NCBI GenBank assembly: GCA_042216015.1
Contig: JBDGUI010000022.1
Coordinates: 1 to 11,348 of the forward strand
Direction: 5' to 3'
Length of the DNA stretch: 11,348 nucleotides
Source: Halodesulfurarchaeum sp.
GTDB lineage: Archaea; Halobacteriota; Halobacteria; Halobacteriales; Halobacteriaceae
The notes below the pieces were generated by a model, which did no database searches, was not told where the DNA came from, and saw only the letters and a program-made list of their open reading frames with translations. The position numbers were made by a program, and so were the translations under genes. This document shows positions 1 to 11,348 of this stretch, piece after piece (within the stretch, counting starts at the first letter, position 1; the number at the start of each line of letters is the position of its first letter).

Positions 1-13
1 CCCGGCGAGTCCA
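1..13 (+). tRNA. 3' end (T-stem 3' strand, acceptor stem, discriminator) of a probable tRNA-Ala, truncated by the window edge
   Basis: CCCGGCGAGTCCA matches the 3' end I recall for haloarchaeal tRNA-Ala(GGC) (...GGGTTCAAATCCCGGCGAGTCCA). A near-copy at 73-88 (AATCCCGGCGAATCCA) keeps the preceding T-loop bases AAT. Only 13 nt are visible and the anticodon is outside the window. Confidence 0.6.
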
Positions 14-72
14 CTCGGCTCACTTCGATCGTTTCGTTCCCTCGTCGTCTTCCCGCTCGCTCCACTCGCGGG

Positions 73-88
73 AATCCCGGCGAATCCA
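73..88 (+). repeat. Degenerate direct repeat of the tRNA 3' end (att-like)
   Basis: CCCGGCGAATCCA (76-88) versus CCCGGCGAGTCCA (1-13): 12/13 identical. A shorter third copy, CGAGTCCACT at 293-302, is identical to 6-15. Confidence 0.75.
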
Positions 89-182
89 TGCACCATTTTA
101 CTCGTCGGGTTCGCCTCCGGCGAACCGCTCCTCGTTAAAATCTGCACCAAAAAAGCCGCAGCCGCGAGCCGAAGGCTCGCGG
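89..182. repeat. Hairpin repeat unit 1 (REP/MITE-like palindromic element)
   Basis: Stem GGTTCGCC 108-115 / GGCGAACC 119-126, enclosed by TTTTA 96-100 / TAAAA 136-140 and TGCA 89-92 / TGCA 143-146. Followed by AAAAGCCGCAGCC (151-163) and the perfect hairpin CCGCGAGCC-GAA-GGCTCGCGG (162-182). Confidence 0.75.
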
Positions 183-216
183 AACGCGTCCCGCGGTGTG
201 TCACCGCCCCACTCCG

Positions 217-262
217 GCGTGATATGTGGTCTGGGGGTTGCGTGATTTGTGGTCTGGGGGTT
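217..262. repeat. 23-bp tandem duplication
   Basis: GCGTGATATGTGGTCTGGGGGTT (217-239) is immediately followed by GCGTGATTTGTGGTCTGGGGGTT (240-262), with one mismatch. Confidence 0.95.
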
Positions 263-306
263 TTCAGGGGGAGAGACCGACGCTAACACCGCCGAGTCCA
301 CTTCCA

Positions 307-417
307 CTTTTTCCGTCACGGGTTTCACTGATCCTCGGGTTTCCTCGGTCGCCTGCGGCGACTTGCAGAAACCTCTCGGTTGGAAAACCGTGGGGAAAAG
401 CCGCAGCCCTCGAGGCT
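307..417. repeat. Hairpin repeat unit 2, related to unit 1
   Basis: Nested stems: CTTTTTCC 307-314 / GGGAAAAG 393-400 (one G-T pair), CACGGGTTTC 317-326 / GAAAACCGTG 383-392 (one mismatch), GGTTTC 338-343 / GAAACC 368-373, and GTCGCC 348-353 / GGCGAC 357-362. Contains the same AAAAGCCGCAGCC at 396-408. Confidence 0.75.
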
Positions 418-474
418 CAGCGAAAACCTCCACACACCCTTATGTCGGCCGAGACCGTCTATCCCGGTGCCAAG

Positions 475-816
475 ATGACAACACGCAATTCCACAGATTC
501 CCTGCTCCGAATCCTGCTCGTGGTCCTCGCGGCCATCATCCTTGTCCCGGTCCTGATGATGGCGTTCGCGGTTCCAATGGTTTGGGGTGGCGGAATGATG
601 GGGGGATACGGGGCCACGCCGGTCTGGAGTATCGGCATGTCGCTCGTCTGGCTTGCCATCCTCGTCGGAATCGGGTTCATGTTCTACCGGTGGCTGAGTG
701 GCGGTCCGGGCGTCGCCGAAGACCCGGCACTCGAGGAACTTCGGCTCGCGTACGCTCGGGGTGAACTTTCCGAAGAGGAGTTCGAAACTCGTCGGGAAAA
801 ACTCGGGGGCGACTGA
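475..816 (+). CDS. SHOCT-domain membrane protein (2 TM, Met/Gly-rich loop), 113 aa
   Basis: From ATG 475: MTTRNSTDSLLRILLVV..., two hydrophobic helices and a C-terminal DPALEELRLAYARGELSEEEFETRREKL typical of SHOCT. The upstream extension to 226 in the ORF track runs through the repeats and is not protein-like. Confidence 0.9.
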   Translation: MTTRNSTDSLLRILLVVLAAIILVPVLMMAFAVPMVWGGGMMGGYGATPVWSIGMSLVWLAILVGIGFMFYRWLSGGPGVAEDPALEELRLAYARGELSEEEFETRREKLGGD

Positions 817-824
817 AAGGAATA

Positions 825-1730
825 TCAGGACTGCCCGTCCAGATACGAAAGCACTCCCCGGACGTTCATCCGGGCCTCCGCTCGACCCTTGATCGGACCC
901 CAGGCGTCGACCGTCTCGGTTCGCTCGGCGAAATACTCGAGCGTGGCCTCCGCCCCGAGTTCCGCACGCTTCTCGCCGACCGAATCGACCCACCCCTCGA
1001 GCACCTCGGCGTACCGGGAGAGCAATCCATCCGGTTCGTGATCCCCGAAATGGGCCAAGTAGAGCGCGTTCGGTTCGAGTGACTCGATGGTCTCGAGATC
1101 CGCGAGACAGCCCTCCAGGTCGAAGTCGGGCGGCGGACTCGAAGGCCGGACTCGATCGAGGCCAGGGGTGAGAATGCCGACAGCGTCGCCGGTGAATACG
1201 CCGCCCGTCGTCCGGTCCTCGAACACGAACTGGTGGAACGCGTGGCCCGGTGCGGGGTGGGCGAGTAACTCGTGATCCCCGAGATCGATTCGATCCCCGG
1301 CTTCGAGTTCGACGATCCGCCCCGCCGCGACCGGGCGGGGCTCGACGTAGAACTGAATCTGGTCCCCGACGGCCGTCTTCGTCCCATCCCAGAGCCGACC
1401 CGGATCGACGAGGTGTTTTGCCCCCTTCTCGTGGACGTAGACCTCCGCGTTCGGGCACACCTCGAGAAGATGACCGGCCCCGCCCGCGTGGTCGAGGTGG
1501 ACGTGGGTCAACACGATCACCTCGAGATCCCCGGGGGCGATATCCAGCTGGGAGAGGGCGTCGAGAACCACGTCCACGTTCGCCCCGGTCCCGGTGTCGA
1601 TCACGGCCGGTCGCTCGGCGTCGATAATGTAGACGGAACAGTAGGTGGCCGGATCGAAATCGCCCGTCTCGACGTAATAGAGGTCACGGCTGTTCCCCGC
1701 AGTTGCCCGGTGGAGTTCGGGCTGTGACAT
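825..1730 (-). CDS. Metallo-beta-lactamase (MBL) fold metallo-hydrolase, 301 aa
   Basis: Motifs VIDTG, THVHLDHAGG (HxHxDH), PGHA, FTGD and LAHFG; acidic composition. Start taken at ATG 1730 (MSQPEL...), which avoids overlap with the upstream SHOCT gene. Substrate unknown. Confidence 0.93.
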   Translation of the reverse strand: MSQPELHRATAGNSRDLYYVETGDFDPATYCSVYIIDAERPAVIDTGTGANVDVVLDALSQLDIAPGDLEVIVLTHVHLDHAGGAGHLLEVCPNAEVYVHEKGAKHLVDPGRLWDGTKTAVGDQIQFYVEPRPVAAGRIVELEAGDRIDLGDHELLAHPAPGHAFHQFVFEDRTTGGVFTGDAVGILTPGLDRVRPSSPPPDFDLEGCLADLETIESLEPNALYLAHFGDHEPDGLLSRYAEVLEGWVDSVGEKRAELGAEATLEYFAERTETVDAWGPIKGRAEARMNVRGVLSYLDGQS

Positions 1731-1753
1731 GCCCGTAAATTGGGGAAGGGGTC

Positions 1754-2146
1754 TCAAAAACGTCCCTGCTGTCGTTCGTGGGGCCGGTGACCCTTCCGAT
1801 GACACCAACCGCGGCCCGTTCGGTCCGACCGGCGGGCTGGACGGTTCGCCTCGGTATCCTGTTCCGGAGTCCCAGTCCGAGTCGATTCCCGGGTTCGAGT
1901 CCCCGCGGTTGGCTCGGGCACTGAATCTGCCTCGTCCGTCTCGTACAGCCGTTTGGCCCGGCGCTCGAGCGTTTCGATGTCGATCGCTCCCTCGACGTAG
2001 CGTTGTTTGAGAGCCTCTATTGCCTCTTCACCGCTCGTTGTGCCCTCGCGGGCCGACGGGTCCACTCTCCCCACCTCGGCTCTGTAACCAGCGAACCCGA
2101 GAAGGGTGAATCCGAGCACGACGACGAAACCCAGCCACAGCAACAT
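1754..2146 (-). CDS. SHOCT-domain membrane protein (1 N-terminal TM), 130 aa
   Basis: Hydrophobic N-terminus, then EEAIEALKQRYVEGAIDIETLERR (SHOCT-like), then a low-complexity Thr/Arg-rich tail. Confidence 0.78.
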   Translation of the reverse strand: MLLWLGFVVVLGFTLLGFAGYRAEVGRVDPSAREGTTSGEEAIEALKQRYVEGAIDIETLERRAKRLYETDEADSVPEPTAGTRTRESTRTGTPEQDTEANRPARRSDRTGRGWCHRKGHRPHERQQGRF

Positions 2147-2229
2147 TGGTGAGTCCCGGTAGGGGCTCGGGTGTTACCCCGCTGGCGCTTTCGATCAGTA
2201 AGTCACTCGTCCCCGACAGTTTGGAGACA

Positions 2230-3000
2230 TCAGGAAAGCAGCGGCGGCACGGCATCGACGAGCAACAGGACCGCGACCGCGAACACCAGCACCGATGCCA
2301 CGATCTGGAACATCGCGTGATAGCGCTCCCCCTTTCGCCTCGTACGTTTGGAGAGGGAGCCTACGCCGCTCCCGATCGCCGCCATGCTCGCGACGATGGA
2401 GATCGTGTAGGCCGCGACGACCCCGACGACGAGTGTGCCTCCCCGGTTGCTCATGACCACCGAGATGAACGCGATCATCGACACGGGCGGTGAGAGGGTG
2501 AAAAGCGCCCCGATCGTGCCGATCTTGAGGTACTCGAGGACGCCGTGATCGTGGGCGTGATCGCCGTGAGCGTCCATCGCGTCACCTTGCTCACCGCTCC
2601 CTGTCCCGCCCGGTGACCCGATCGGCAGGTGAACGTGGACGTGAGAGTGGGGCCCAGCGCCGTGTTCGTGTTCGTGGCGGTGGAGCAGTCGTCGAGTGCC
2701 CGTCACCCCCAGATACAGGCTGAGCATGGCCAGGATCGTTCCCACGACGAGCAGGCCGAATTGCTCGAGCACCGGTGGAAACCTGGTCGCTCCGAAGAGA
2801 AGCAGGGCCGTCCCGACCCAGATCACGACCAGGATCGCGTGACCGATCGCGAAGCAGCCGCCGACGATCGCCGAGAGTTTCGGATCCGCGGCCTCGTGGG
2901 TGAGTGCCGCGATGACGGCGACGTGATCGGGCTCGATGGCGTGAGTGATCCCGAGCACGCCGGCCGAGACGAACAGTCCGAGCCCCACAGTCGGATCCAT
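2230..3000 (-). CDS. NiCoT/UreH-like nickel/cobalt transporter with His-rich loop, 256 aa
   Basis: GITHAIEPDH resembles the HAxDxDH signature and FAIGH resembles the FxxGH motif. About 6 TM helices and a central HRHEHEHGAGPHSHVHVH...HGDHAHDH loop. Direction of transport cannot be read from the sequence. Confidence 0.85.
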   Translation of the reverse strand: MDPTVGLGLFVSAGVLGITHAIEPDHVAVIAALTHEAADPKLSAIVGGCFAIGHAILVVIWVGTALLLFGATRFPPVLEQFGLLVVGTILAMLSLYLGVTGTRRLLHRHEHEHGAGPHSHVHVHLPIGSPGGTGSGEQGDAMDAHGDHAHDHGVLEYLKIGTIGALFTLSPPVSMIAFISVVMSNRGGTLVVGVVAAYTISIVASMAAIGSGVGSLSKRTRRKGERYHAMFQIVASVLVFAVAVLLLVDAVPPLLS

Positions 3001-3317
3001 GCGATTCCATCAACTGGGCGAGGTGACTTGACGGCCCACCCTCGTTTCCAGATCGTGAGAATGGATGGAATGGGAGTCAATCACACCGGGGCGAATGTAT
3101 CCTCCCGCCTGTAAAGCGGGTTCTTCGCCGCGCGGACCCCGGCAATCCTCAATCTCGCTGCCATCGTTCCCCCATATTGTGGAGCGGGTGGCGACCACCC
3201 GGACGGACGAGAAATGGATCGAAAAGGCCGCTAACATCCGTGATCTTCCGTCGACCTGCCAAATAGTGGATGGTTGCTACCACCACAGTAAAGGGTCCCA
3301 CCGTCACTATTCCGGGT

Positions 3318-3680
3318 ATGAACGTGGAACCCACCGGATCCAGCGCGGAGACCCTGACGTTCACCGAGGCGGCCATCGACGAGGCCCGGAGGGCGATGGC
3401 GCGTGAATCCCTCGATCCCGCCGAGAACGGCCTTCGAATCGTCGCCCGAGAGAAAAACTGCGACTGTGGCTCGATGGCCTACGGAATGCACTTCGAGCCC
3501 GATCCCCGTCCCGAGGACGAGGTGATCGACCACGGGGAGATCCAGGTGTTCGTCGACCCGGGGAGCTACGAACACGTCGACGGAGCGACTGTGGATTACG
3601 TCTCCGGCCCGGGCCGTGAGGGATTCATCGTGGAGGTGCCTCGGTCGGACGGGGGCTGTGGGTGCGGCGGCCATCACTGA
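3318..3680 (+). CDS. HesB/IscA-family (A-type) Fe-S cluster carrier protein, ~120 aa
   Basis: LTFTEAA, GLRI, VFVDPGSYEHVDGATVDYV, GF and C-terminal GCGCG motifs. ATG 3318 is preferred over 3270 because of the family N-terminus and a weak A/T-rich GTAAAG at 3288-3293, the position expected for a leaderless transcript. Start is uncertain. Confidence 0.9.
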   Translation: MNVEPTGSSAETLTFTEAAIDEARRAMARESLDPAENGLRIVAREKNCDCGSMAYGMHFEPDPRPEDEVIDHGEIQVFVDPGSYEHVDGATVDYVSGPGREGFIVEVPRSDGGCGCGGHH

Positions 3681-3889
3681 CTGGGTCAGGTTACCATTTG
3701 TCCTTTCCGAGGGCCGGTTATTCGTTACGAGGACGAGGCCGCCGGAGCCCGGGGCTGCACAATGATCGCCACCGTCGATCGACGAACGAAGGGTTCCCGA
3801 GGGGTGGATCGACGCGATCGGCGCCATTCGTGCCTCGAGAGGTCTGGATTTCCCGGACGCAAAGTCAGTTTTGCTGGGCCATTGCGGAG

Positions 3890-5878
3890 TCAGATTCCCT
3901 GGAACCCCAGTTCCCGTTCGGCCGTCCGATCGGTCCGACAGGTTGGACAGACCTCGAGGTCCAGCGTTTCGAGGGCCGCCTCGTCGAGCTGTTCGCGCAT
4001 GGCGTCCAGTCCGTCCCGGGGGGCAAAGGGATCGCCACAGACCGTACACTCGACCATCTCCTTTTCGACGATCGGGCGCCGGTCGGGTACCGTCCCGTCA
4101 CCGATCGCCATCCGCCCGGTGACGGTCATGACGTCTTCGGGGCACGCGGTCTCACAGTGGCCACAGCCCAGACAGGCCCCCGAATCGAAGGCAAGCGTTC
4201 CGGTCGTCTGTTCGAGGGCGTCGGTCGGACAGACGTCCTGGCAGGTCGAACAGAGGGTGCAGCCGTCCGCATCGACGGTCACTGCTCCCCCGCCCGGGAC
4301 CGCAACCTGCTTCTCACTCCTGCCGTGACCGGCCGCAAGCGCGACGCTCGCACGCACGCCAAGTTCGTGGCGAGAGCCACTCTCGACGCTTCCTGTCGAC
4401 ACCGATTCGATCGGCTCCCCGAGCAACCCATCCATGAGGGCCGCGAGCGAATCCTGATCGGTGGTATCGCTCACCCGCACCCGCTCGCCCAGCCCCAGAT
4501 CCGAGAGAGCCTGATTCGCCTGGCGGGCAGCGTCTTCGACCGGTTCCGTGGCTCGGTCCGGGTCGCTGGCCAGGACGACGCCATCCGCCCCCAGTGCGAC
4601 CGCGTAGATGGCGGCCACGTCGGGCACCGAGAGCACGTTCGGCACCTCGATGGGGACCATCGCCGGGACCGCCCGCGAGGAGAGCGTGGCCCGAAAGGCG
4701 GGCGCGATCGCCTCGCTGACGAACGCCACGCCGAAGGGCGTCGAATCGGCCCCCCACGGGAATCGCGAACCACCGGACGCCTCAATGATCGGTTCCAGAG
4801 CGGCCTCCACCACGCGGGCCGTCGTCGCGACGTCATACACGCGGGTCGGTTCGATCGAGTCGGTCGGACAGACCGAAACACAGGTTCCACAGGCGACACA
4901 ACGATCCGGCTCGATCGAGACCCCGCCGTCATGAGAGAGCGAGATGGAGATGGCGTCGTTGGGACAGGCCTCCTCGCAGGCCGAACAGCCCTCGTTTCCG
5001 ACCGTGCCAACTGCACAGGTCTCCGGCTCGACGGAGACCTCCGGCCGGGCTCGCATCCGTGCGGCACGGCGGACGGCCCCGGTGACGCCCGTCCGGATGG
5101 CGTGCACCCAGCGATCGCCCACGAGTGGACCGTCGTAACCGGGCCAGACCACCTGTGTCGCGTCGAGTTGCTCGACGATCGGGTCAGTTGTTGGCCTGAT
5201 GGCGCTTTCCGGACAGACTCCCGGTTCGACCCCCGCTCCGAGGACCTGAACGGGGACTGCAGCTGTCTCCTCGGGATACTGCCGGAAACAGCGGCCACAT
5301 TCGGTACAGTCCTCAGTCACCCGTCGCTCGACCCGCACCGAATACCCGCCCGCCTTTCGCGCAAGTTCCGTCGGGATGCCAGTCCGCACCGTGACCGCCG
5401 CGGGAAGCGTGACATCCCCCAGATCGGTCCCGTCGGTGAGAAGGGTCACGTCGACCGTCCCGGCCAGGTCGCGGGCCACAAGCGGGTCTCCGATCACCAC
5501 GACGTGGGCCGTCCCGGGTTCCGGATCGGCGGGGAAATCCCGTTGAGCCTCCATTCCCGCCAGGGCGGCGTTGGCCGATCCCGCGACGATCGCCGTCGCC
5601 GTGTCCTCGTCCTGGGCCTCGCCGATGAAGGGGCTGACCCTGTCGGTTAGATAATCCGCCTCGCGGAGACTCGTCTGCAGGTCCTCGACCGCCGGATCCC
5701 GTCCGGCCACGAACAGGACCCGGTCGGTGGTGGTGGCCTCGATGCGCTCGGCGATTTCCTCCACGTGCGCACCGACGTCACCCGTGACGATGGCATCGTC
5801 GACGTCGAGCGCCGACGCGACGTCGTCTCGGTCCATCTGGGCCGTCCCACGACAGTCACTGACGACGGCGACCGTCAT
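3890..5878 (-). CDS. FDH-associated multi-[4Fe-4S] protein with degenerate HdrA-like N-terminus and MvhD-like domain, 662 aa
   Basis: Cys motifs CTECGRC...VCP, CAVGTVGNEGCSACEEACP, CVACGTCVSVCP, CTLCSTCQDVCP, CLGCGHCETACP and C-terminal CTVC...CPTC. Contains ALGADGVVLA. ATGA overlap with the TorD gene and SD GGGGGTG at 5884-5890. Confidence 0.9.
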   Translation of the reverse strand: MTVAVVSDCRGTAQMDRDDVASALDVDDAIVTGDVGAHVEEIAERIEATTTDRVLFVAGRDPAVEDLQTSLREADYLTDRVSPFIGEAQDEDTATAIVAGSANAALAGMEAQRDFPADPEPGTAHVVVIGDPLVARDLAGTVDVTLLTDGTDLGDVTLPAAVTVRTGIPTELARKAGGYSVRVERRVTEDCTECGRCFRQYPEETAAVPVQVLGAGVEPGVCPESAIRPTTDPIVEQLDATQVVWPGYDGPLVGDRWVHAIRTGVTGAVRRAARMRARPEVSVEPETCAVGTVGNEGCSACEEACPNDAISISLSHDGGVSIEPDRCVACGTCVSVCPTDSIEPTRVYDVATTARVVEAALEPIIEASGGSRFPWGADSTPFGVAFVSEAIAPAFRATLSSRAVPAMVPIEVPNVLSVPDVAAIYAVALGADGVVLASDPDRATEPVEDAARQANQALSDLGLGERVRVSDTTDQDSLAALMDGLLGEPIESVSTGSVESGSRHELGVRASVALAAGHGRSEKQVAVPGGGAVTVDADGCTLCSTCQDVCPTDALEQTTGTLAFDSGACLGCGHCETACPEDVMTVTGRMAIGDGTVPDRRPIVEKEMVECTVCGDPFAPRDGLDAMREQLDEAALETLDLEVCPTCRTDRTAERELGFQGI

Positions 5879-6474
5879 TGGCGCACCCCCTGCCGATCCG
5901 CGTCGAAGGCCACCAGACCCGACACCATCTCGGCAATCGCCTCGAAGTACGGCTCCTCGGTGGCCTCCCGGATGTCCTCGCCGAGGTCGGCGAACCAGTC
6001 CCCGTGGGATTCGAGAAAGGCCTGCTTTCGCGTTTCGCTCTCGGCCGTGAGTTCGCGCAACGCGGCGAGTTCCACGGCGGCGTGGTCGGCCTCCTCCTTG
6101 AGATCCGGGGCGGGAGCGATCCCGAGTTGTTTGTAGGTCTCCGTCACGGCCGCGAGCGGTTCGCCGAGATACTCACCCGCGTAGTAGGACTCGTGGATCT
6201 GTAACTTCGGGCGAGGACCCACGAAGAGGCGGGTGAATTCGACGGCGAGTCGGTCTGCCTCCGCTGCCGGATCACTGACGGACTCACCCCATTCCCCGAG
6301 CCTCTCGAGTCCGGACTGCAACTGGTCGTTCGGGGCGAGTTCGGGGTCCGGGAGCGGGCCCGCCGCGAGCCTCTCGACTGTCGACTCCTCGGGTGGATCC
6401 GCAAGCGCACCCGAGAGGAGATCATAGAGCTGTGCCAGCGTCGCGTCGTCGGTCGGTGTGTCCTCGGAATTCAT
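5875..6474 (-). CDS. TorD/DmsD-family redox enzyme maturation chaperone, 199 aa
   Basis: EFTRLFVGP, HESYY and EEADHAAVEL (ExxDH) motifs; lies in an operon with a Tat-exported molybdoenzyme. Confidence 0.93.
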   Translation of the reverse strand: MNSEDTPTDDATLAQLYDLLSGALADPPEESTVERLAAGPLPDPELAPNDQLQSGLERLGEWGESVSDPAAEADRLAVEFTRLFVGPRPKLQIHESYYAGEYLGEPLAAVTETYKQLGIAPAPDLKEEADHAAVELAALRELTAESETRKQAFLESHGDWFADLGEDIREATEEPYFEAIAEMVSGLVAFDADRQGVRQ

Positions 6475-6508
6475 GATTCACTGATCGGTTCCGAAAGTTC
6501 ATAGCGTC

Positions 6509-7495
6509 TCAATCTGTGACCCGTTGTGCCATTCCATAGAGCAACGCCACGAGGCCGGCGATGATGATCAGCACCGCGACGTTGAGCCCGAGACTCCAGA
6601 AGACCCCGAAGGTCCCCTCGAGGATCGTCTCCGGAGGCTCCAGGAGGTAGAGGGTCGTCCGCGTGCCCGGAATCGGTGCCAGAATGCGATCGATCATGAT
6701 CCCGGAGTAGATCGCGGCGAAGACGAAGAGCACCACCCCGACGGCCGCGACCTGAATCGAGCGGCCCTCGATGGCGTCGCCGGTGGCAGTCTCCCCCTGG
6801 CCAGTCGGGCCGGTCGGTGCCTCGGAGGGCTCGCCCCCGTCGGTCCGCTCCGAGTCGCCATCCACCCATTTACCCCACTCCTCCCGGGCCCGCTCGAGGG
6901 ACACCCGACCGGTGAAGATCGAGGTGTCGAGTGGGAACTGGAGGACGTGGGTGTCATAGAGGTGGAAGGTCACGCCCATCAGGAGCGTGAACGCGAACAC
7001 CGCATGGAGGTCACTCGCGACGAGGAACGCGGGACGGTACCGGAGCAGGAGACCGGGGAAGACGAGCAGGAGCCCCGTCGCGGCCAGGACGGTGAGCTCG
7101 ACGGTGATGATCAGGATCTCGGACTTCTGGATCCAGTTGTACTTTCCCGATCGTGGCTGTCTCCCTCGGCCGAGCACGTGTTTCGCGTAGGCGATCGCCT
7201 CCCGAACCGTCTCTCGGGTCGGAATCCAGTCCGTGGGGACATCTCCCGTCGCCAGCCCGGTGATCGCGTAGATGAGATAGTACAGAAGCGAGAGAAAGAG
7301 GGTGACCCCGGCGACGATGTGGATCAGCACGATGTTCTGGTAGCCGAAGATGGCATAGAGCCAACCCACCTGCCCGCCGAACGTGATCGCGGTCCCCGAA
7401 AGGAACAGCACGAGAATCGCCCCGGCCATCAGGAAGTGAAAGTACACCTGGACGGCCGAAAAGCGTGCCACCGTCTCGGCGTCCGGCTCGTTCAT
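6509..7495 (-). CDS. fdhC: Formate dehydrogenase cytochrome b (gamma) membrane subunit with C-terminal 2-TM extension, 328 aa
   Basis: VARFS...YFH, IHIVAG, GKYNWIQK and LHAVFA...TFHL give four candidate heme-ligand His. C-terminal SIFTGRVS...W is typical of FdnI/HupC-type cytochromes b. Confidence 0.88.
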   Translation of the reverse strand: MNEPDAETVARFSAVQVYFHFLMAGAILVLFLSGTAITFGGQVGWLYAIFGYQNIVLIHIVAGVTLFLSLLYYLIYAITGLATGDVPTDWIPTRETVREAIAYAKHVLGRGRQPRSGKYNWIQKSEILIITVELTVLAATGLLLVFPGLLLRYRPAFLVASDLHAVFAFTLLMGVTFHLYDTHVLQFPLDTSIFTGRVSLERAREEWGKWVDGDSERTDGGEPSEAPTGPTGQGETATGDAIEGRSIQVAAVGVVLFVFAAIYSGIMIDRILAPIPGTRTTLYLLEPPETILEGTFGVFWSLGLNVAVLIIIAGLVALLYGMAQRVTD

Positions 7496-7776
7496 CGGTT
7501 CACCCCCTGGTGTGTGCGCAACGAGAGGACGAGCAGCACGGAGACCGTCGCGATCAGGCCGGTGAGGTAGACGCCCAGGAGCCCGCGCAGGATGAGCCAG
7601 TTCCCTGACATGGACTCGTACTGCGAGATTCCCTCACCGACCAGCGCGAGCGTATCCCGCATCCACACGCCGGTCGTCAACCCCGGGGATGCGGCGTTCA
7701 GGGCGTACAACACGCCGGCTCCGATGAGTACTGCGGCGACTGCGGCGACGATGGATCGGACGTGGTCGGTGTGCAT
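7492..7776 (-). CDS. Small 2-TM hypothetical membrane protein in the fdh operon, 94 aa
   Basis: Fills the gap between fdhB and fdhC, has two hydrophobic segments, and its stop overlaps the fdhC start (ATGA). Confidence 0.8.
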   Translation of the reverse strand: MHTDHVRSIVAAVAAVLIGAGVLYALNAASPGLTTGVWMRDTLALVGEGISQYESMSGNWLILRGLLGVYLTGLIATVSVLLVLSLRTHQGVNR

Positions 7777-7788
7777 CGTTTTCCCGTG

Positions 7789-8343
7789 TCAGTCACTTCC
7801 CGTGCCGAAGACGATCGACTGTTCGGCTTTGGTGAACATCGGGTCGCTACCGCGGCGACGCATCTCGTCCGAGATCTCGCTGGGAGTTCCGAAGACCAGG
7901 GCGTCCGTCGGGCAGGTATTCACGCAGGCAGGGTTCTTGCCCTCTTCGAGGCGTGGCTCGCACGTGGTGCACTTGTCCATGATGCCCGACCCCCCCGTCG
8001 TGGTCTCTTCGGTCGGGTACTGTGGCGCACCGAACGGACAGGCCCAGGCACAGTACGAGCACCCGATGCAGAGGTCCTTGTCAACCTGAACGAGATTGTC
8101 CTCGTCACGGTGGAGTGCGTCCGTGGGACAGACGTCGATACACGGCGCCTCCTCGCAGTTGTAACACTGCATCGGGGTGTGGGTCTCGCCGTCCGTATAA
8201 TACGTCCCGCGTTCGGCCTCGTTGTGCGTCACGACCTCGATGCGCTCGCCGGAGTGGGGGATGTCCCACTCCTCCTTGCAGGCGACCTCGCAGCCACCGC
8301 AGTCGATACAGCGTTCGACGTCGGGAATGACGCGCAGCGTCAT
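7789..8343 (-). CDS. fdhB: Formate dehydrogenase iron-sulfur (beta) subunit, 4x[4Fe-4S], 184 aa
   Basis: CIDCGGCEVAC, CYNCEEAPCIDVCP, CIGCSYCAWACP and KCTTC...PACVNTCP; no C-terminal TM anchor. SD GGAGGTGA at 8350-8357 and ATGA overlap with fdhA. Confidence 0.95.
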   Translation of the reverse strand: MTLRVIPDVERCIDCGGCEVACKEEWDIPHSGERIEVVTHNEAERGTYYTDGETHTPMQCYNCEEAPCIDVCPTDALHRDEDNLVQVDKDLCIGCSYCAWACPFGAPQYPTEETTTGGSGIMDKCTTCEPRLEEGKNPACVNTCPTDALVFGTPSEISDEMRRRGSDPMFTKAEQSIVFGTGSD

Positions 8344-11285
8344 TTCGTGTCACCTCCGAGATTCTGGTCGATGATTCCCTTCTCCTCCTGGAACGCGAGT
8401 TGCTTCTCGGGCAGGTCGGGAATCTGGTCCGGACTCGCCTTTTCGACGAGCGCGAGGTTCGCCTTCGTCTCCTGCATCATGGTATGTGGGTCGTAGCCGT
8501 CTGACGTCCCGATATTGGCCGAGTCCCCGATAGTCAGGGGTGCGAGGCCGTCAGGATACCGGTCTGTGAGCGATTCGCCCTCGAAGATGCCGCCCCAGTG
8601 GAACGGCATGAATAGTTCCTCGTCGTTGACGCGGTCGGTGACCCTGGCCTGGACGACCATCTTCCCGCGCCTCGTGCCGACCACGATCCAGTCGCCCGTC
8701 TCGACCGCGAGTTCGTTCGCGCGCGCCCGACTGATTTCGGCGTACATGTACGGGGCCCGTTCGGCGGTGAAGCGATTGTTGCGGGTCTCCGCCCCGCCAC
8801 CCGTGTGCTCGACCTGCCGACCGGTCGTCATGATCACGGGGTGTGACTCGACCAGGTTCTTCCGGGCCAGCTGCTTCGAGCGATCGTGGAGGTTGACCCG
8901 GAACAGGTCGTCCATGTCCTCGTAGGTCGGGTACTCGTCGATGAGGTCGGGCCGGGGGGTCTCGATCGGTTCGCGGTGGATGGGAATGGGATCGTAGAGG
9001 TTCCAGGCGTTTCCGCGGGCCCGTCCCCGACCGGTCGGTGGGTCGGGCTGTTTGTGATCGTACTGCGTGTACTCGTCGGGATTGACGTCCTTTCCGGCCT
9101 CGCTCAGAGCCTTCGCGGCGTCGTAGACCGACTTGTCCTCTCGCTCCGCGTACTCGATCGGGACAGTCTTCGCGGCCGGATCGGCAGGGTCCGGCAGGGC
9201 CATGTGCCACATCGGGTACTGCGGGACCCCCTCGATGGTGTCGTCCCACCAGTCGGGTTCGTAGGGATTTCGGAGGAGGTTCTCCCCGTCGGGACTCTCC
9301 GTGCCCCATCGCGAGCGGAAGTCGAGACCGCCCTTCGCCGGGTGCTTGTTGTCGTCGTACAGGATCGGTGTCCCCGGGTGTTCGCCGTGCCAGGAGGGCC
9401 ACGGAAGCCCGAAATAATCGCCCGCGAGCGGGTGGTCGTCGGTGACCTCCGCTTTGAGGTCCTCCGTGTCGAAGACGCCCGAGTTGTCCATGTGTGCCTT
9501 CATCCGCTCCGGCGTCTGCCCGATCATCCCGATGGTGCGCATGCCGAGGTTCCACTCGCGAGTGACGTCCTCGACGCTCTCGTAGTCGAAGTGGTCGCCG
9601 AAGCCCAGCCGCGTTGCCAGGTCCTGAATGATCTCGAAGTCGGTCCGGGAGTTGTGACGGGGCGTCACGGTCTGGCGACGCCACTGGATAGAACGGTGGG
9701 AGTTGGTGACGCTGCCCGCCGTTTCCATCTGGGTCGCCGCCGGCAGGAGGATGATGCCGTCGTCGCGGTCGGGCAGCGAAGAGGTGAGCGCCGGGTACGG
9801 GTCCACGCCCACGATGAGATCGAGATTCTCCATGGCCGTCTTCATCTTCTTCATCTGGGTGACCGAGTTGAGCGAGTGGCCCCAGATCATCACCGCCTTC
9901 AGCGGATTCGGCTGATGGAAGTCGACGCCCGCTTCGTTCCCGGGGAACGCGGCCTCGTACCATCGGGAGACCGTAAGACCGTTCTTCTCCATCAGGTCCT
10001 TCGAGTGGAAGCGATCCCGCATCGCCTCGTAGGATGTCGATCCGCTGGTCGAGGGGGTCTGATCCCAGACGTCCGCCCAGTGACGCCAGGCCCCTTCGCC
10101 GAGGCCGTAGTACCCCGGCAGCGAGTTCGACAGGACACAGAGGTCGGTCGCGCCCTGGACGTTGTCGTGCCCCCGGACGACGTTCAGACCGCCGCCGGCC
10201 TGGGCGGCGTGGCCGAGCGCGAGGTTGAGGATCGCGAACGACCGAATGTTCTGGGTGCCGTTGTTGTGCTGGGTGGATCCCATCGCCCAGTCGACGGTCG
10301 AGACGTCGGCGTTCGCGAGAATCTCCGCTATCTCTTTCAGACGGTCGACGCTCACCCAGCTGATGTCCGAAACCGTCTCGAGGTCGTACTCGCGGATCGT
10401 GTCTTTGACTTCGTCCCAGCCGGCGACCCGGTCGCGGATGAATTCCTCGTCGTGCGCCCCGAGGTTGAAGACGATGTGGTGGGTGAGACCGTTGATAAAG
10501 GCGGTGTCGGTCCCCGGCCGGATGCGGACCGCCTCGTCGGCCTGTGCCGACGTCTTCGTGAATCGGGGTTCGGCGGTGATGACCGTCCCGCCGTTGCGCT
10601 GCATCTGCTGGACGTACTGCATCATCACCGGGTGGGACTCCGCGGGGTTGTGCCCGATGATGAGGTTGGCGTCCTGGTGCTGGTAGTCGTTGAGGGGGTT
10701 GGTCTGGGCGCCGAAACCCCAGGTATTCGCGAGGCCGGCGACCGTCGTGGAGTGACAGATCCGGGCCTGGTGGTCGACGTTGTTGGTCCCGTAGAAGGCC
10801 GCCAGCTTGCGGAACATGTAGGCCTCCTCGTTGTTGACCTTCGCCGATCCCATCCACATCACGGAATCAGGGCCATACTCGTCGCGGATTCGTTCGAGTT
10901 CGGAGGCGACCTCGCGCATGGCCTGCGACCAGGTAATAGTCTTCCACTCGCCGCCTTCTTTCTTCAACGGCTCTTTCAGCCGGTTCTCGTCGTTTACGGT
11001 GTGAGTCAGACTCGCACCCTTCGAACACAGCCCGCCCTGGCTGATCGGATGGTCGTCCCAGGTCTGGAGGCCGACGACCGCGTCGTTCTCGACCTCCATC
11101 TTCAGCCCACAGCCGACCGCACAGTGCGAACAGATCGTCTTGACGGTGTCCGGTTCCTTCCCGGCGTCAGTACCCCCTGTTTCGTCTGATTGGGCGAGGA
11201 CACGGGAGCTTCCGGCGGCGGTCGCGATGGCCGTTCCACCGGCCACTTTAAGGAAGTCCCGTCTCTCGAAGTCTATGCTGGACAT
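8340..11285 (-). CDS. fdhA: Tat-exported Mo/W-bis-PGD formate dehydrogenase catalytic (alpha) subunit, Cys-type, 981 aa
   Basis: Twin-arginine signal FERRDFLK; N-terminal [4Fe-4S] motif CSHCAVGC...LCSKG; active-site DHQARICHS and RGHDNVQG; C-terminal molybdopterin-dinucleotide domain (TTGR, MPFHW). Confidence 0.96.
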   Translation of the reverse strand: MSSIDFERRDFLKVAGGTAIATAAGSSRVLAQSDETGGTDAGKEPDTVKTICSHCAVGCGLKMEVENDAVVGLQTWDDHPISQGGLCSKGASLTHTVNDENRLKEPLKKEGGEWKTITWSQAMREVASELERIRDEYGPDSVMWMGSAKVNNEEAYMFRKLAAFYGTNNVDHQARICHSTTVAGLANTWGFGAQTNPLNDYQHQDANLIIGHNPAESHPVMMQYVQQMQRNGGTVITAEPRFTKTSAQADEAVRIRPGTDTAFINGLTHHIVFNLGAHDEEFIRDRVAGWDEVKDTIREYDLETVSDISWVSVDRLKEIAEILANADVSTVDWAMGSTQHNNGTQNIRSFAILNLALGHAAQAGGGLNVVRGHDNVQGATDLCVLSNSLPGYYGLGEGAWRHWADVWDQTPSTSGSTSYEAMRDRFHSKDLMEKNGLTVSRWYEAAFPGNEAGVDFHQPNPLKAVMIWGHSLNSVTQMKKMKTAMENLDLIVGVDPYPALTSSLPDRDDGIILLPAATQMETAGSVTNSHRSIQWRRQTVTPRHNSRTDFEIIQDLATRLGFGDHFDYESVEDVTREWNLGMRTIGMIGQTPERMKAHMDNSGVFDTEDLKAEVTDDHPLAGDYFGLPWPSWHGEHPGTPILYDDNKHPAKGGLDFRSRWGTESPDGENLLRNPYEPDWWDDTIEGVPQYPMWHMALPDPADPAAKTVPIEYAEREDKSVYDAAKALSEAGKDVNPDEYTQYDHKQPDPPTGRGRARGNAWNLYDPIPIHREPIETPRPDLIDEYPTYEDMDDLFRVNLHDRSKQLARKNLVESHPVIMTTGRQVEHTGGGAETRNNRFTAERAPYMYAEISRARANELAVETGDWIVVGTRRGKMVVQARVTDRVNDEELFMPFHWGGIFEGESLTDRYPDGLAPLTIGDSANIGTSDGYDPHTMMQETKANLALVEKASPDQIPDLPEKQLAFQEEKGIIDQNLGGDTK
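8350..8357 (-). promoter_or_regulatory. Shine-Dalgarno site for fdhB (similar sites at 7500-7507 and 5884-5890)
   Basis: GGAGGTGA lies 6 nt before the ATG. GGGGGTGA and GGGGGTG precede the other two ATGA-coupled starts. Confidence 0.85.
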
Positions 11286-11328
11286 TTACACCCAAACTAA
11301 TGATCGGAACCCGGGTAGTAGCTCACCC

Positions 11329-11348
11329 TATATACAAGGGGCTTTTTA
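11329..11348 (-). promoter_or_regulatory. Probable archaeal BRE/TATA promoter of the fdh operon
   Basis: Minus strand reads TAAAAAGCCCCTTGTATATAGG: an A-rich BRE-like run, then TATATA (11329-11334) ending 43 nt before the ATG. This implies a leader of roughly 20 nt carrying GGGTG (11289-11293). Confidence 0.6.

Follow-up and report, generated by a model that had tools for sequence, protein, structure and literature searches.

A putative HdrA-MvhD descendant without most of the flavin domain, encoded beside torD in a haloarchaeal formate dehydrogenase operon

What is the origin, and what could be the role, of a large polyferredoxin encoded in an operon for an exported formate dehydrogenase (FDH)? 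The question is raised by an 11,348-nucleotide stretch of DNA from Halodesulfurarchaeum sp. (GenBank assembly GCA_042216015.1, contig JBDGUI010000022.1, positions 1 to 11,348 of the forward strand), here called the window, in which the polyferredoxin gene is the last of a six-gene minus-strand operon, fdhA-fdhB-TM-cytb-torD-polyferredoxin (Table 1). HdrA is the textbook flavin-based electron-bifurcating subunit, and the original prediction, made from the letters of the window, regarded the polyferredoxin as a stripped-down fusion of HdrA with MvhD, repurposed as a flavin-free electron wire or as an FDH maturation factor. The comparisons described here trace the protein to an HdrA-MvhD fusion of the HdrA2 type that has sustained losses, and document its conserved cysteines, the gene neighbourhoods of its family and the expression of a probable orthologue. 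From these data we infer that the protein is free of flavin, is a partner of TorD and FdhAB and has a role in maturation. The best explanation, to which we give an even chance, is that it is a soluble cytoplasmic iron-sulfur (Fe-S) accessory factor derived from HdrA-MvhD that, like NapF, helps to mature an enzyme exported through twin-arginine translocation (Tat).

The polyferredoxin open reading frame (ORF) is, judging by 24 homologues at E<=1e-3 and 521 clusters at E<=1e-30, a genuine gene and no chance ORF. The 24 homologues show 49-85% identity in Halodesulfurarchaeum and Halanaeroarchaeum, and the nearest homologues of the window proteins belong to the haloarchaeal genus Halodesulfurarchaeum; the window has a GC content of about 0.65 and its encoded proteins are acidic. 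Because neither a signal peptide nor a membrane helix was found in the protein (N-terminus MTVAVVSDCRG; maximal 19-residue Kyte-Doolittle value 1.65, within the MvhD-like domain), it is predicted to be cytoplasmic.

All 11 motifs on which the original prediction had relied are present in the polyferredoxin in the order given there, and its estimate of about five [4Fe-4S] sites plus a four-Cys C-terminal site agrees with our count of five [4Fe-4S]-type motifs and one four-Cys site among 25 cysteines in total (Table 1). No cysteine occurs between residues 337 and 540, which include the MvhD-like segment. Neither GxGxxG nor GxGxxA is found anywhere in the 662 residues, and at E<=0.01 Pfam recognizes Fer4 families alone, with no Pyr_redox or other flavin adenine dinucleotide (FAD) family.

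The N-terminal part was connected to HdrA through intermediates. Profiles were compared with hhalign, using alignments of 29 full-length family members (A3), of five true HdrA proteins (A5; Pyr_redox_2 in 5/5 and GxGxxG near residue 146-150 in 5/5) and of the target clade (A6). The 25 full-length relatives outside the target clade are collinear with the five true HdrA proteins over HdrA residues 1-346 (probability 99.95, E 1.7e-37), and residues 1-258 of the target clade match those 25 relatives (probability 99.8, E 5.7e-28). With the target as master row of A3, its residues 1-245 map onto HdrA 1-327 (probability 99.8), and the residue map agrees with the HdrA motif pairings proposed earlier. 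In the N-terminal domain, C-H-C of HdrA corresponds to S7-D8-C9, FMC is lost, ACSP is represented by AGRD and HCSW by GEAQ; of the four cluster positions that most relatives fill with Cys, the target fills one (C9). In the Rossmann stub, IIGGGIAG is represented by VIGDPLVA, with GDPLVA in place of GGGIAG, and 26 residues past strand 2 are missing. In the inserted ferredoxin, GNYNV...CTGCAVCEDVCP of HdrA aligns with GGYSV...CTECGRCFRQYP, and C222 is all that is left of the second cluster motif; both motifs are retained in relatives such as P0039-P0060. The following strand, LTVGNIII in HdrA, is LDATQVVW in the target.

Single relatives and a predicted structure gave results in the same direction. 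A hidden Markov model of residues 1-186, built from 13 clade sequences, recovered P0136 (E 7.6e-11) and P0029 (E 1.8e-10; both scaled to the whole library), which are Cys-bearing haloarchaeal forms of the family. The N-terminal 194 residues of P0029 matched HdrA chains exclusively in the PDB (5/5 matches; best 5odc_A, E 1.1e-7) and the NCBIfam HdrA2 model at E 4.3e-11. The HdrA2 model matches 29/29 full-length relatives at E<=1e-5 (best E 2.3e-59), and in single relatives its two matching stretches follow the correct order (for example, P0040 2-154 = model 1-162; P0043 267-472 = model 549-766), at scores far below its cut-off. In the target's ESM Atlas model (pTM 0.70), residues 1-186 matched HdrA clusters at TM-scores of 0.62-0.64 over 152-161 residues, and Pyr_redox_2 is present in 100% of the members of these clusters. 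Together, the chain of profiles through relatives (E 1e-10 to 1e-37), the residue map and the Atlas match bear out the proposed HdrA likeness. The HdrA domain limits used here are consistent with passages of bioRxiv 10.1101/2024.09.26.615249 and PMC9012536.

What is missing is the flavin domain. HdrA chains in the PDB align with the target only from residue 264/266 onward, and HdrA ~330-555 is without counterpart; the match resumes at target residue 271, equivalent to HdrA ~556, and therefore about 225 flavin-domain residues have no equivalent. The earlier statement that the FAD-binding GxGxxG and most of the flavin domain are absent was thus correct. An identity as an FAD-dependent HdrA was rejected, given the lack of GxGxxG or GxGxxA (found in 5/5 true HdrA), the lack of a Pyr_redox/FAD family and the unmatched HdrA ~330-555. 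Scores against the curated HdrA models NF040770, NF041778 and NF041891 were 61, 45 and 47 bits, compared to cut-offs of 1100, 1400 and 1300. As for the other features of HdrA, the C-terminal ferredoxin is complete, the inserted ferredoxin has one of two cluster motifs, and the N-terminal domain retains fold and homology but only C9 of its four [4Fe-4S] cysteines. No hdrB or hdrC (or HdrD) gene was found among the scanned window ORFs, and the 10 annotated plasmid loci described below list none. Judged from its sequence, the polyferredoxin cannot bifurcate electrons.

The middle part was traced to MvhD. The only match of A6 to A5 aligned residues 271-490 with 556-749 of an HdrA2-type member, covering its C-terminal ferredoxin and MvhD (probability 97.7, E 1.7e-12), and clade residues 346-490 matched 15 FlpD-bearing relatives (probability 98.7, E 2.4e-16), in support of the proposed MvhD likeness. 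Pfam FlpD (PF02662) was found in 19/29 full-length relatives (for example, P0028 at E 1.3e-4 and P0029 at E 1.6e-16); on target residues 337-530 it scored E 0.039 and 14.4 bits, below the gathering threshold of 22.3. The MvhD/FlpD homology of the target is, on these comparisons, visible through its relatives only. Where P0029 has Cys, the target has S388, N414, D439 and R442, and Cys is kept at these positions in 26-31 of 86 aligned relatives. Because the domain is without any Cys, it has no [2Fe-2S] site, as had been predicted.

The constant core of the family consists of the two ferredoxin domains and the tail, with Cys in 84-87 of 85-87 sequences per position except for C330. In the first domain, which carries the family signature C-A-x-G-x5-G-C-x2-C-x3-C-P in residues 286-345, C288/298/301/305/327/333/337 are each present in 87/87 aligned relatives and C330 in 81/87; the cysteines of the second are kept in 84-86 of 85-86. 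The four tail cysteines probably resemble a zinc-ribbon or rubredoxin knuckle, and the tail by itself matched no Pfam family and gave no significant PDB match.

A search of 1.84 billion representatives with profile A1 (the clade plus two distant matches) returned 18147 proteins at E<=1e-3, most via ferredoxin motifs, and 521 clusters at E<=1e-30. The family therefore comprises at least 521 clusters (50% identity) with a common core, many of them held by Pseudomonadota. Among the best 150 A1 matches some are full-length (e.g. P0039-P0045, P0060 and P0118) and many contain the core only, residues 270-656. In the Atlas, the structural neighbours of the target are '4Fe-4S binding protein' clusters, whole-length and about 650-700 amino acids in size (TM-score 0.63-0.68 over residues 1-658), mostly from Pseudomonadota with one archaeal. 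Members are annotated merely as '4Fe-4S binding protein' or 'hydrogenase iron-sulfur subunit', at about 550-780 amino acids. The target has the defining traits of the family, namely the ferredoxin signature, the FlpD-like domain, the second ferredoxin, the C-x2-C...C-x2-C tail and full-length alignment. Among 7 atypically long or extended members from the A1 search, DUF3306 is fused N-terminal to the core in 2/7 (P0096, P0165) and an FdhB/DmsB-type Fer4_11 domain C-terminal to it in 2/7 (P0128, P0138); no TorD fusion was seen among the seven.

None of the 29 full-length relatives has a Pyr_redox/FAD Pfam family, compared to 5/5 true HdrA, and none has GxGxxG. The original prediction was right that the flavin domain has been lost, with the correction that the stripped-down state is not peculiar to this gene; the whole large family is without flavin. 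By these counts, flavin loss characterizes the family as a whole, and no other form in it is as depleted of cofactors as the target clade. In a midpoint-rooted FastTree phylogeny of 87 members, read with a table of their cysteines, the target clade stands beside P0030 and P0035, and these beside the haloarchaeal P0029, P0031 and P0036, all of which keep four N-terminal-domain and four FlpD cysteines. This proximity to Cys-complete haloarchaeal forms suggests stepwise cofactor loss. Both inserted-ferredoxin clusters, and often the FlpD cysteines as well, are conserved in archaeal-type relatives. Most proteobacterial forms have the four N-terminal-domain cysteines and no inserted ferredoxin, and their FlpD cysteines are gone.

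Gene neighbourhoods were examined in 16 loci: the window, 4 related loci, 2 haloarchaeal plasmids, 8 annotated proteobacterial plasmids and an unannotated Ralstonia locus. A query with P0029 had given 2 plasmid records, both examined, and a query with P0118 gave 84, of which 9 from different genera were examined. A TorD-family gene lies adjacent to or near the polyferredoxin gene in 15/16 loci, as a rule together with an FDH3-type formate dehydrogenase. The exception is the Ralstonia locus, where FdhA and FdhB lie downstream and TorD was undetected with the window TorD as query. The six-gene order recurs in all four complete related loci (L001 and L002, Halodesulfurarchaeum metagenome-assembled genomes [MAGs]; L004, a Halanaeroarchaeum MAG; L005, a Halobacteriota MAG); L003 and L006 are contig fragments. 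In line with the coupling to torD proposed earlier, an ATGA stop/start overlap is present in 5/5 clade loci, the window and 4/4 related ones. The window thus shows the neighbourhood typical of the family, a TorD-family chaperone together with a Tat-exported enzyme containing molybdenum or tungsten bis-pyranopterin guanine dinucleotide (Mo/W-bisPGD).

Gene order and partner enzyme vary. In Haladaptatus salinisoli the polyferredoxin gene is followed by torD, divergent from an fdhA-4Fe4S-hypothetical-cytb operon, and torD and the polyferredoxin gene are likewise reversed yet adjacent in Diaphorobacter. Natronorubrum bangense has, in this order, Mo-oxidoreductase, 4Fe-4S, NrfD, hypothetical, TorD and polyferredoxin genes, amid ars genes; the best score of the oxidoreductase is as PhsA-like (E 8e-57) rather than as FDH, and the partner here is a Psr/Phs-like enzyme with an NrfD anchor. 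The expectation that related 4Fe-4S proteins sit beside torD and fdh in proteobacteria was upheld, with genes for DUF3305, DUF3306, TorD and FDH3 beside the '4Fe-4S binding protein' in 8/8 annotated loci (in L086 the alpha subunit is unlisted). Haloarchaeal loci, unlike these, have neither DUF3305 nor DUF3306. In 8/8 the polyferredoxin gene lies outside the structural fdh operon, and in 5/8 it stands first in an operon with genes for DUF6494, ApbC/Mrp-NBP35, a lipoate-protein-ligase-like protein and DUF6505 (L085, L087, L088, L090 and L091, about 10800-13300 in each; the ligase is of the biotin/lipoate-protein-ligase family). DUF6352 is present in L084 and L086; no publication mentioning DUF6505, DUF6494 or DUF6352 was found in the literature searched. 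Diaphorobacter has DUF3305-DUF3306-polyferredoxin-TorD-MobA opposite an fdh3 operon with FdhD, and MobA, FdhD and molybdenum cofactor genes are neighbours; its DUF3306 and polyferredoxin genes have 95 bp in common. In passages of Bay et al. 2015 (PMC4464133), 'fer4' or hypothetical ferredoxins and DUF3305/6 in torD-fdh operons had already been noted.

These data are best accommodated by the following scheme. An HdrA2-type fusion would have lost almost the whole flavin (thioredoxin-reductase-like) domain and gained a two-cluster ferredoxin and a four-Cys tail; the haloarchaeal clade would additionally have lost the N-terminal-domain cluster, one inserted-ferredoxin cluster and the MvhD [2Fe-2S] site, leaving, besides the site in the tail, five putative [4Fe-4S] sites and a pair of alpha/beta domains without cofactor. 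The protein would act in the cytoplasm jointly with the TorD-family chaperone whose gene overlaps its own, on the precursor of the Tat-exported FdhA-FdhB before export, much as NapF acts on NapA. It may deliver low-potential electrons, help the five [4Fe-4S] clusters and the metal cofactor to be assembled or protected, or do both, with the cofactor-less HdrA N-terminal and MvhD-like domains as possible docking surfaces. Such a pre-export accessory role is suggested by three features: a chaperone that binds signal peptides is the conserved partner, whichever the gene order and for both kinds of enzyme; the gene is grouped in bacteria with accessory genes, an Fe-S carrier among them; and the window has an IscA/HesB-like gene a short way downstream. 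Genomic context thus favours maturation over an electron wire.

Expression data are available for Halodesulfurarchaeum formicicum HTSR1 (PMC5437934), where passages of the paper describe operon HTSR_1573-1576 as a membrane-bound, outward-facing FDH and do not discuss the genes downstream. HTSR_1571 is probably the orthologue of the polyferredoxin, from its shared name and gene position. Its spectral counts on sulfur, thiosulfate and dimethyl sulfoxide were 4/11/3, compared to 10/6/0 for TorD (HTSR_1572), 23/12/4 for FdhA (HTSR_1576), 1/0/0 for FdhB and 2/0/0 for cytochrome b (Table S11 of PMC5437934). Table S10 of that paper has six TorD/DmsD genes and two 'ferredoxin-like protein' rows, with HTSR_1571 numbered beside the TorD gene HTSR_1572.

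Several observations weigh against this scheme. One is that, in the haloarchaeal clade, the gene and the structural genes are co-transcribed; another is that the Fer4_11 fusions in two family members suit an electron-transfer chain at least equally well. The strict conservation of 16 Cys in the two ferredoxin domains indicates that redox clusters matter, and does not discriminate between the readings. The counts of HTSR_1571 are of the same order as those of FdhA, which is high for an assembly factor, and rise from 4 to 11 while FdhA falls from 23 to 12, coinciding with a rise of the cytoplasmic FdhA enzymes reported in PMC5437934. With six TorD/DmsD genes against two ferredoxin-like rows, the polyferredoxin probably does not serve TorD clients in general. 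NapF, too, has a role that is disputed between organisms, according to passages of PMC10609526. As for ancestry, the direct comparison of the clade with the true HdrA profile over residues 1-265 was not significant (N-terminal domain E 0.04; best local match GGYSV..CTECGRC versus GNYNV..CTGC, E 2.4e-4, probability 44%), and the N-terminal link to HdrA therefore rests on intermediates and predicted structure.

The same observations lend themselves to a second explanation, in which the protein is a working electron-transfer subunit, a flavin-free wire docked on the cytoplasmic face of the membrane FDH or providing the monomeric cytoplasmic FdhA enzymes of these archaea with the electron-acceptor interface to ferredoxin that they lack. 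Five intact [4Fe-4S] motifs near-invariant across 87 relatives, co-transcription in 5/5 clade loci, the fusions in 2/7 extended members, an orthologue comparable in abundance to FdhA with its peak on thiosulfate when cytoplasmic FdhAs rise (passages of PMC5437934), and the use of the C-terminal and inserted ferredoxins of HdrA as electron inlet and outlet (passages of PMC9012536) all favour such a wire. We nevertheless regard it as rather unlikely. FdhA has a Tat signal and therefore works outside the cell. Electrons from formate oxidised outside end on menaquinone, with no driving force towards ferredoxin-level clusters inside against the membrane potential; electron flow from outside formate oxidation to inside ferredoxin was rejected on these energetic grounds, which are general bioenergetics and not a calculation. 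Moreover, the Natronorubrum partner enzyme has, by annotation, a haem-less NrfD-type anchor, the gene stands apart from the structural operon in 8/8 annotated proteobacterial loci, among accessory genes (TorD, DUF3305/6, ApbC/Mrp, MobA), the ferredoxin domains of HdrA communicate solely through FAD, here gone, and spectral counts this low are weak evidence.

A third explanation is a redox sensor or quality-control protein that gates Tat export of FdhAB via TorD and donates neither clusters nor electrons. The TorD partnership seen in neighbourhoods and ATGA overlap, the conserved Fe-S clusters and the pre-export proofreading by TorD-type chaperones (passages of PMC10609526 and PMC4464133) agree with it, and the present data give no distinction between it and maturation; but Pfam and NCBIfam scans found no sensing or output domain, five clusters exceed what a sensor needs, and we consider it distinctly improbable. 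Retention of a flavin or dinucleotide in the Rossmann stub, with HdrA-like bifurcating or confurcating activity, has in its favour the beta-alpha-beta remnant HVVVIGD...VDVTLL and is hardly tenable with no GxGxxG/GxGxxA, 26 residues deleted after strand 2, about 225 domain residues missing, no FAD/Pyr_redox family in the target or 29 relatives and no hdrB/hdrC in the window. A chance or convergent likeness of a generic polyferredoxin with unrelated spacer domains, to which the non-significant direct comparison and the Fer4-only Pfam result would conform, is scarcely credible beside the collinear chain of intermediates, the exclusive HdrA matches of P0029 in the PDB, the HdrA2 model matching both ends of relatives in order and the independent structural match of residues 1-186.

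Extended to the whole family, the maturation scheme becomes a more tentative proposal, whose odds we place a little short of even: the family (at least 521 clusters, from haloarchaea to Pseudomonadota) may be a new class of molybdoenzyme maturation factor in which the bifurcating flavin domain was cut from an HdrA-MvhD fusion. Together with ApbC/IscA-type carriers, the ferredoxin clusters of the family would be a source of electrons or clusters, and the cofactor-less domains would retain the FdhAB (or Psr-like) precursor, bound to TorD, until loading is complete and Tat export can follow. A widespread HdrA descendant that has discarded flavin and kept the inlet and outlet Fe-S modules illustrates how such scaffolds are recycled. 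How exported tungsten or molybdenum FDHs acquire their five Fe-S clusters and sulfurated cofactor is only partly understood, and this limits their heterologous production for CO2 reduction. If it is a required accessory factor, the polyferredoxin would be a concrete candidate for co-expression and, after NapF, a second case of a dedicated cytoplasmic polyferredoxin in the biogenesis of Tat enzymes.

Table 1. Features of the polyferredoxin, its operon and nearby genes, with window coordinates and polyferredoxin residue numbers
Feature	Window coordinates	Residues	Strand	Basis or remark
Polyferredoxin coding sequence, 662 codons/amino acids, ATG start	3890..5878		minus	ORF and translation; stop codon 3890-3892
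HdrA N-terminal domain remnant	5519..5878	1-120	minus	hhalign, clade versus 25 relatives, probability 96.7, E 4.2e-10
HdrA Rossmann beta-alpha-beta stub and GN(F/Y)xV strand	5321..5518	121-186	minus	residue map to true HdrA
Half of HdrA inserted ferredoxin	5174..5320	187-235	minus	one [4Fe-4S] motif (C191, C194, C197, C222); second lost
Strand LDATQVVW (= HdrA VGxIIxATG), short linker, helix = last HdrA flavin-domain helix	5024..5173	236-285	minus	
Two-cluster ferredoxin = HdrA C-terminal ferredoxin	4844..5023	286-345	minus	Pfam Fer4; PDB HdrA chains E 5e-14 (family profile)
MvhD/FlpD-like domain, Cys-free	4409..4843	346-490	minus	Pfam FlpD on relatives; hhalign
Linker, H504 invariant within clade	4289..4408	491-530	minus	alignment A1; no family match
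Second two-cluster ferredoxin, extra to HdrA2 architecture	4109..4288	531-590	minus	Pfam Fer4; FwdF, MvhB and HycF chain matches
C-terminal tail E-C-x2-C-G-x-P-F ... C-P-x-C-R	3893..4108	591-662	minus	Cys in 85-86 of 85-86 relatives
Motif DRVLFVAG		52-59		
Motif ATAIVAGSANAA		94-105		
Motif HVVVIGDP		125-132		
Motif VTLL		144-147		
Motif GGYSV..CTECGRC		177-197		
Motif VCPESAI		221-227		
Motif LDATQVVWPGYD		238-249		
Motif VPIEVPNVLSV		408-418		
Motif AVALGADGVVLASD		426-439		
Motif CTVC		611-614		
Motif CPTC		644-647		
Solitary Cys		C9		
CxxCxxC...CP motif, one		C191/194/197 + C222		
Two-cluster ferredoxin Cys		C288/298/301/305 + C327/330/333/337		
Second two-cluster ferredoxin Cys		C540/543/546/550 + C569/572/575/579		
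Tail Cys		C611/614 + C644/647		
ATGA overlap, torD stop/polyferredoxin start	5875..5878		minus	sequence; also in L001, L002, L004, L005
TorD/NarJ-family chaperone, 199 amino acids	5875..6474		minus	Pfam Nitrate_red_del E 3.8e-18; NCBIfam TorD E 1.1e-7, below cut-off
FDH gamma subunit, cytochrome b, 328 amino acids	6509..7495		minus	Pfam Ni_hydr_CYTB E 7e-21; TIGR01583 E 7.8e-14, below cut-off
Small hydrophobic membrane protein, 94 amino acids, between fdhB and cytochrome b gene	7492..7776		minus	no Pfam/NCBIfam family
FDH3-type beta subunit, 184 amino acids, four-cluster ferredoxin	7789..8343		minus	NCBIfam FDH3_beta E 8.9e-45, below 240-bit cut-off; Pfam Fer4_11
FdhA, FDH alpha subunit, 981 amino acids, Mo-bisPGD domains	8340..11285		minus	TIGR01591 E 2e-150, 502 bits, cut-off 666
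IscA/HesB-type Fe-S biosynthesis gene	3270-3680		plus	Pfam Fe-S_biosyn E 7e-11
tRNA-Arg(CCT), 89 nt	1825-1913		plus	ARAGORN call

FdhA carries a twin-arginine signal, ERRDFLK (Pfam TAT_signal, 18.6 bits, below cut-off), and contains a Cys-His pair in ARICHSTT which we take to be the active site. In the gamma subunit the Ni_hydr_CYTB match is confined to residues 11-180 and is followed by about 150 residues made up of an acidic Gly/Thr/Glu-rich linker and more hydrophobic segments. The 94-residue membrane protein is kept in 4/4 related loci at 52-90% identity (partial in L005), and proteobacterial FDH3 operons such as that of Diaphorobacter have a small hypothetical gene at the equivalent position. 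L004:4636-8135 shows 91% (FdhA) and 89% (FdhB) identity to window 7789-11285, compared to just 52-59% for the remaining four operon proteins; from these identities the operon looks mosaic, with a recent exchange of fdhAB between genera.

Downstream of the operon, the IscA/HesB-type gene is convergent to the polyferredoxin gene, 210 bp from its end; L001 has a homologue some 2 kb downstream, and no match was found in L002, L004 or L005. The genes at 226-816 (plus), 825-1808 (minus), 1754-2146 (minus) and 2230-3000 (minus) seem unrelated to the operon. They encode a pair of membrane proteins with SHOCT domains, an MBL-fold hydrolase and a His-rich membrane protein that matches NicO weakly (nickel transport; E 1.9e-4, below cut-off). 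The tRNA-Arg(CCT) call overlaps the SHOCT-like ORF at 1754-2146; Rfam found no family at its gathering threshold anywhere in the window, including this site, and the call is either an intron-bearing archaeal tRNA or a false one.

Among known systems, the polyferredoxin is closest in layout to HdrA2 (the HdrA-MvhD fusion of Methanosarcina, NF040770) and to HdrA of HdrABC-MvhAGD (PDB 5ODC), with which it shares the same module order: N-terminal domain, Rossmann start, inserted ferredoxin, last flavin-domain helix, C-terminal two-cluster ferredoxin and MvhD domain. Unlike them it has neither GxGxxG nor some 225 flavin-domain residues, its N-terminal-domain ligands are down to one, one inserted cluster and the MvhD cysteines are gone, a further ferredoxin and the four-Cys tail are present, and its neighbours are torD and fdh, with no hdrBC. 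Residues 346-490 are likewise homologous to the MvhD/FlpD (PF02662) domains of relatives, but with all [2Fe-2S] cysteines replaced. No publication describing a flavin-less HdrA-MvhD derivative or characterizing this family was found, in a search that did not cover subscription journals. FwdF/MvhB and HycF (formate hydrogenlyase subunit 6) are the best PDB matches of the two ferredoxin domains, driven by CxxCxxCxxxCP motifs, and share no non-ferredoxin domains with the target; the HycF alignment apparently extends into the tail (query 559-651 versus HycF 63-162, E 2.7e-8), an extension that is not used as evidence here.

The functional parallel is with NapF, which has several [4Fe-4S] clusters, is not exported, and is encoded next to a Tat-exported Mo-bisPGD enzyme together with a signal-peptide-binding chaperone, NapD in that case and TorD in this one. 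According to passages of PMC10609526, NapF is cytoplasmic, contains four [4Fe-4S] clusters, binds NapA and is needed for Fe-S loading of NapA in Rhodobacter sphaeroides. Unlike the target, NapF is small and has ferredoxin motifs alone, with no HdrA/MvhD remnants, and the sequence likeness is confined to generic ferredoxin motifs. TIGR00402 (NapF) matches 27/29 relatives at E<=1e-5 solely through these motifs, the 25 best NCBIfam rows for the target do not include napF, and the locus has no nap operon. We propose, by analogy, that the polyferredoxin resembles NapF in function and is not a member of its family.

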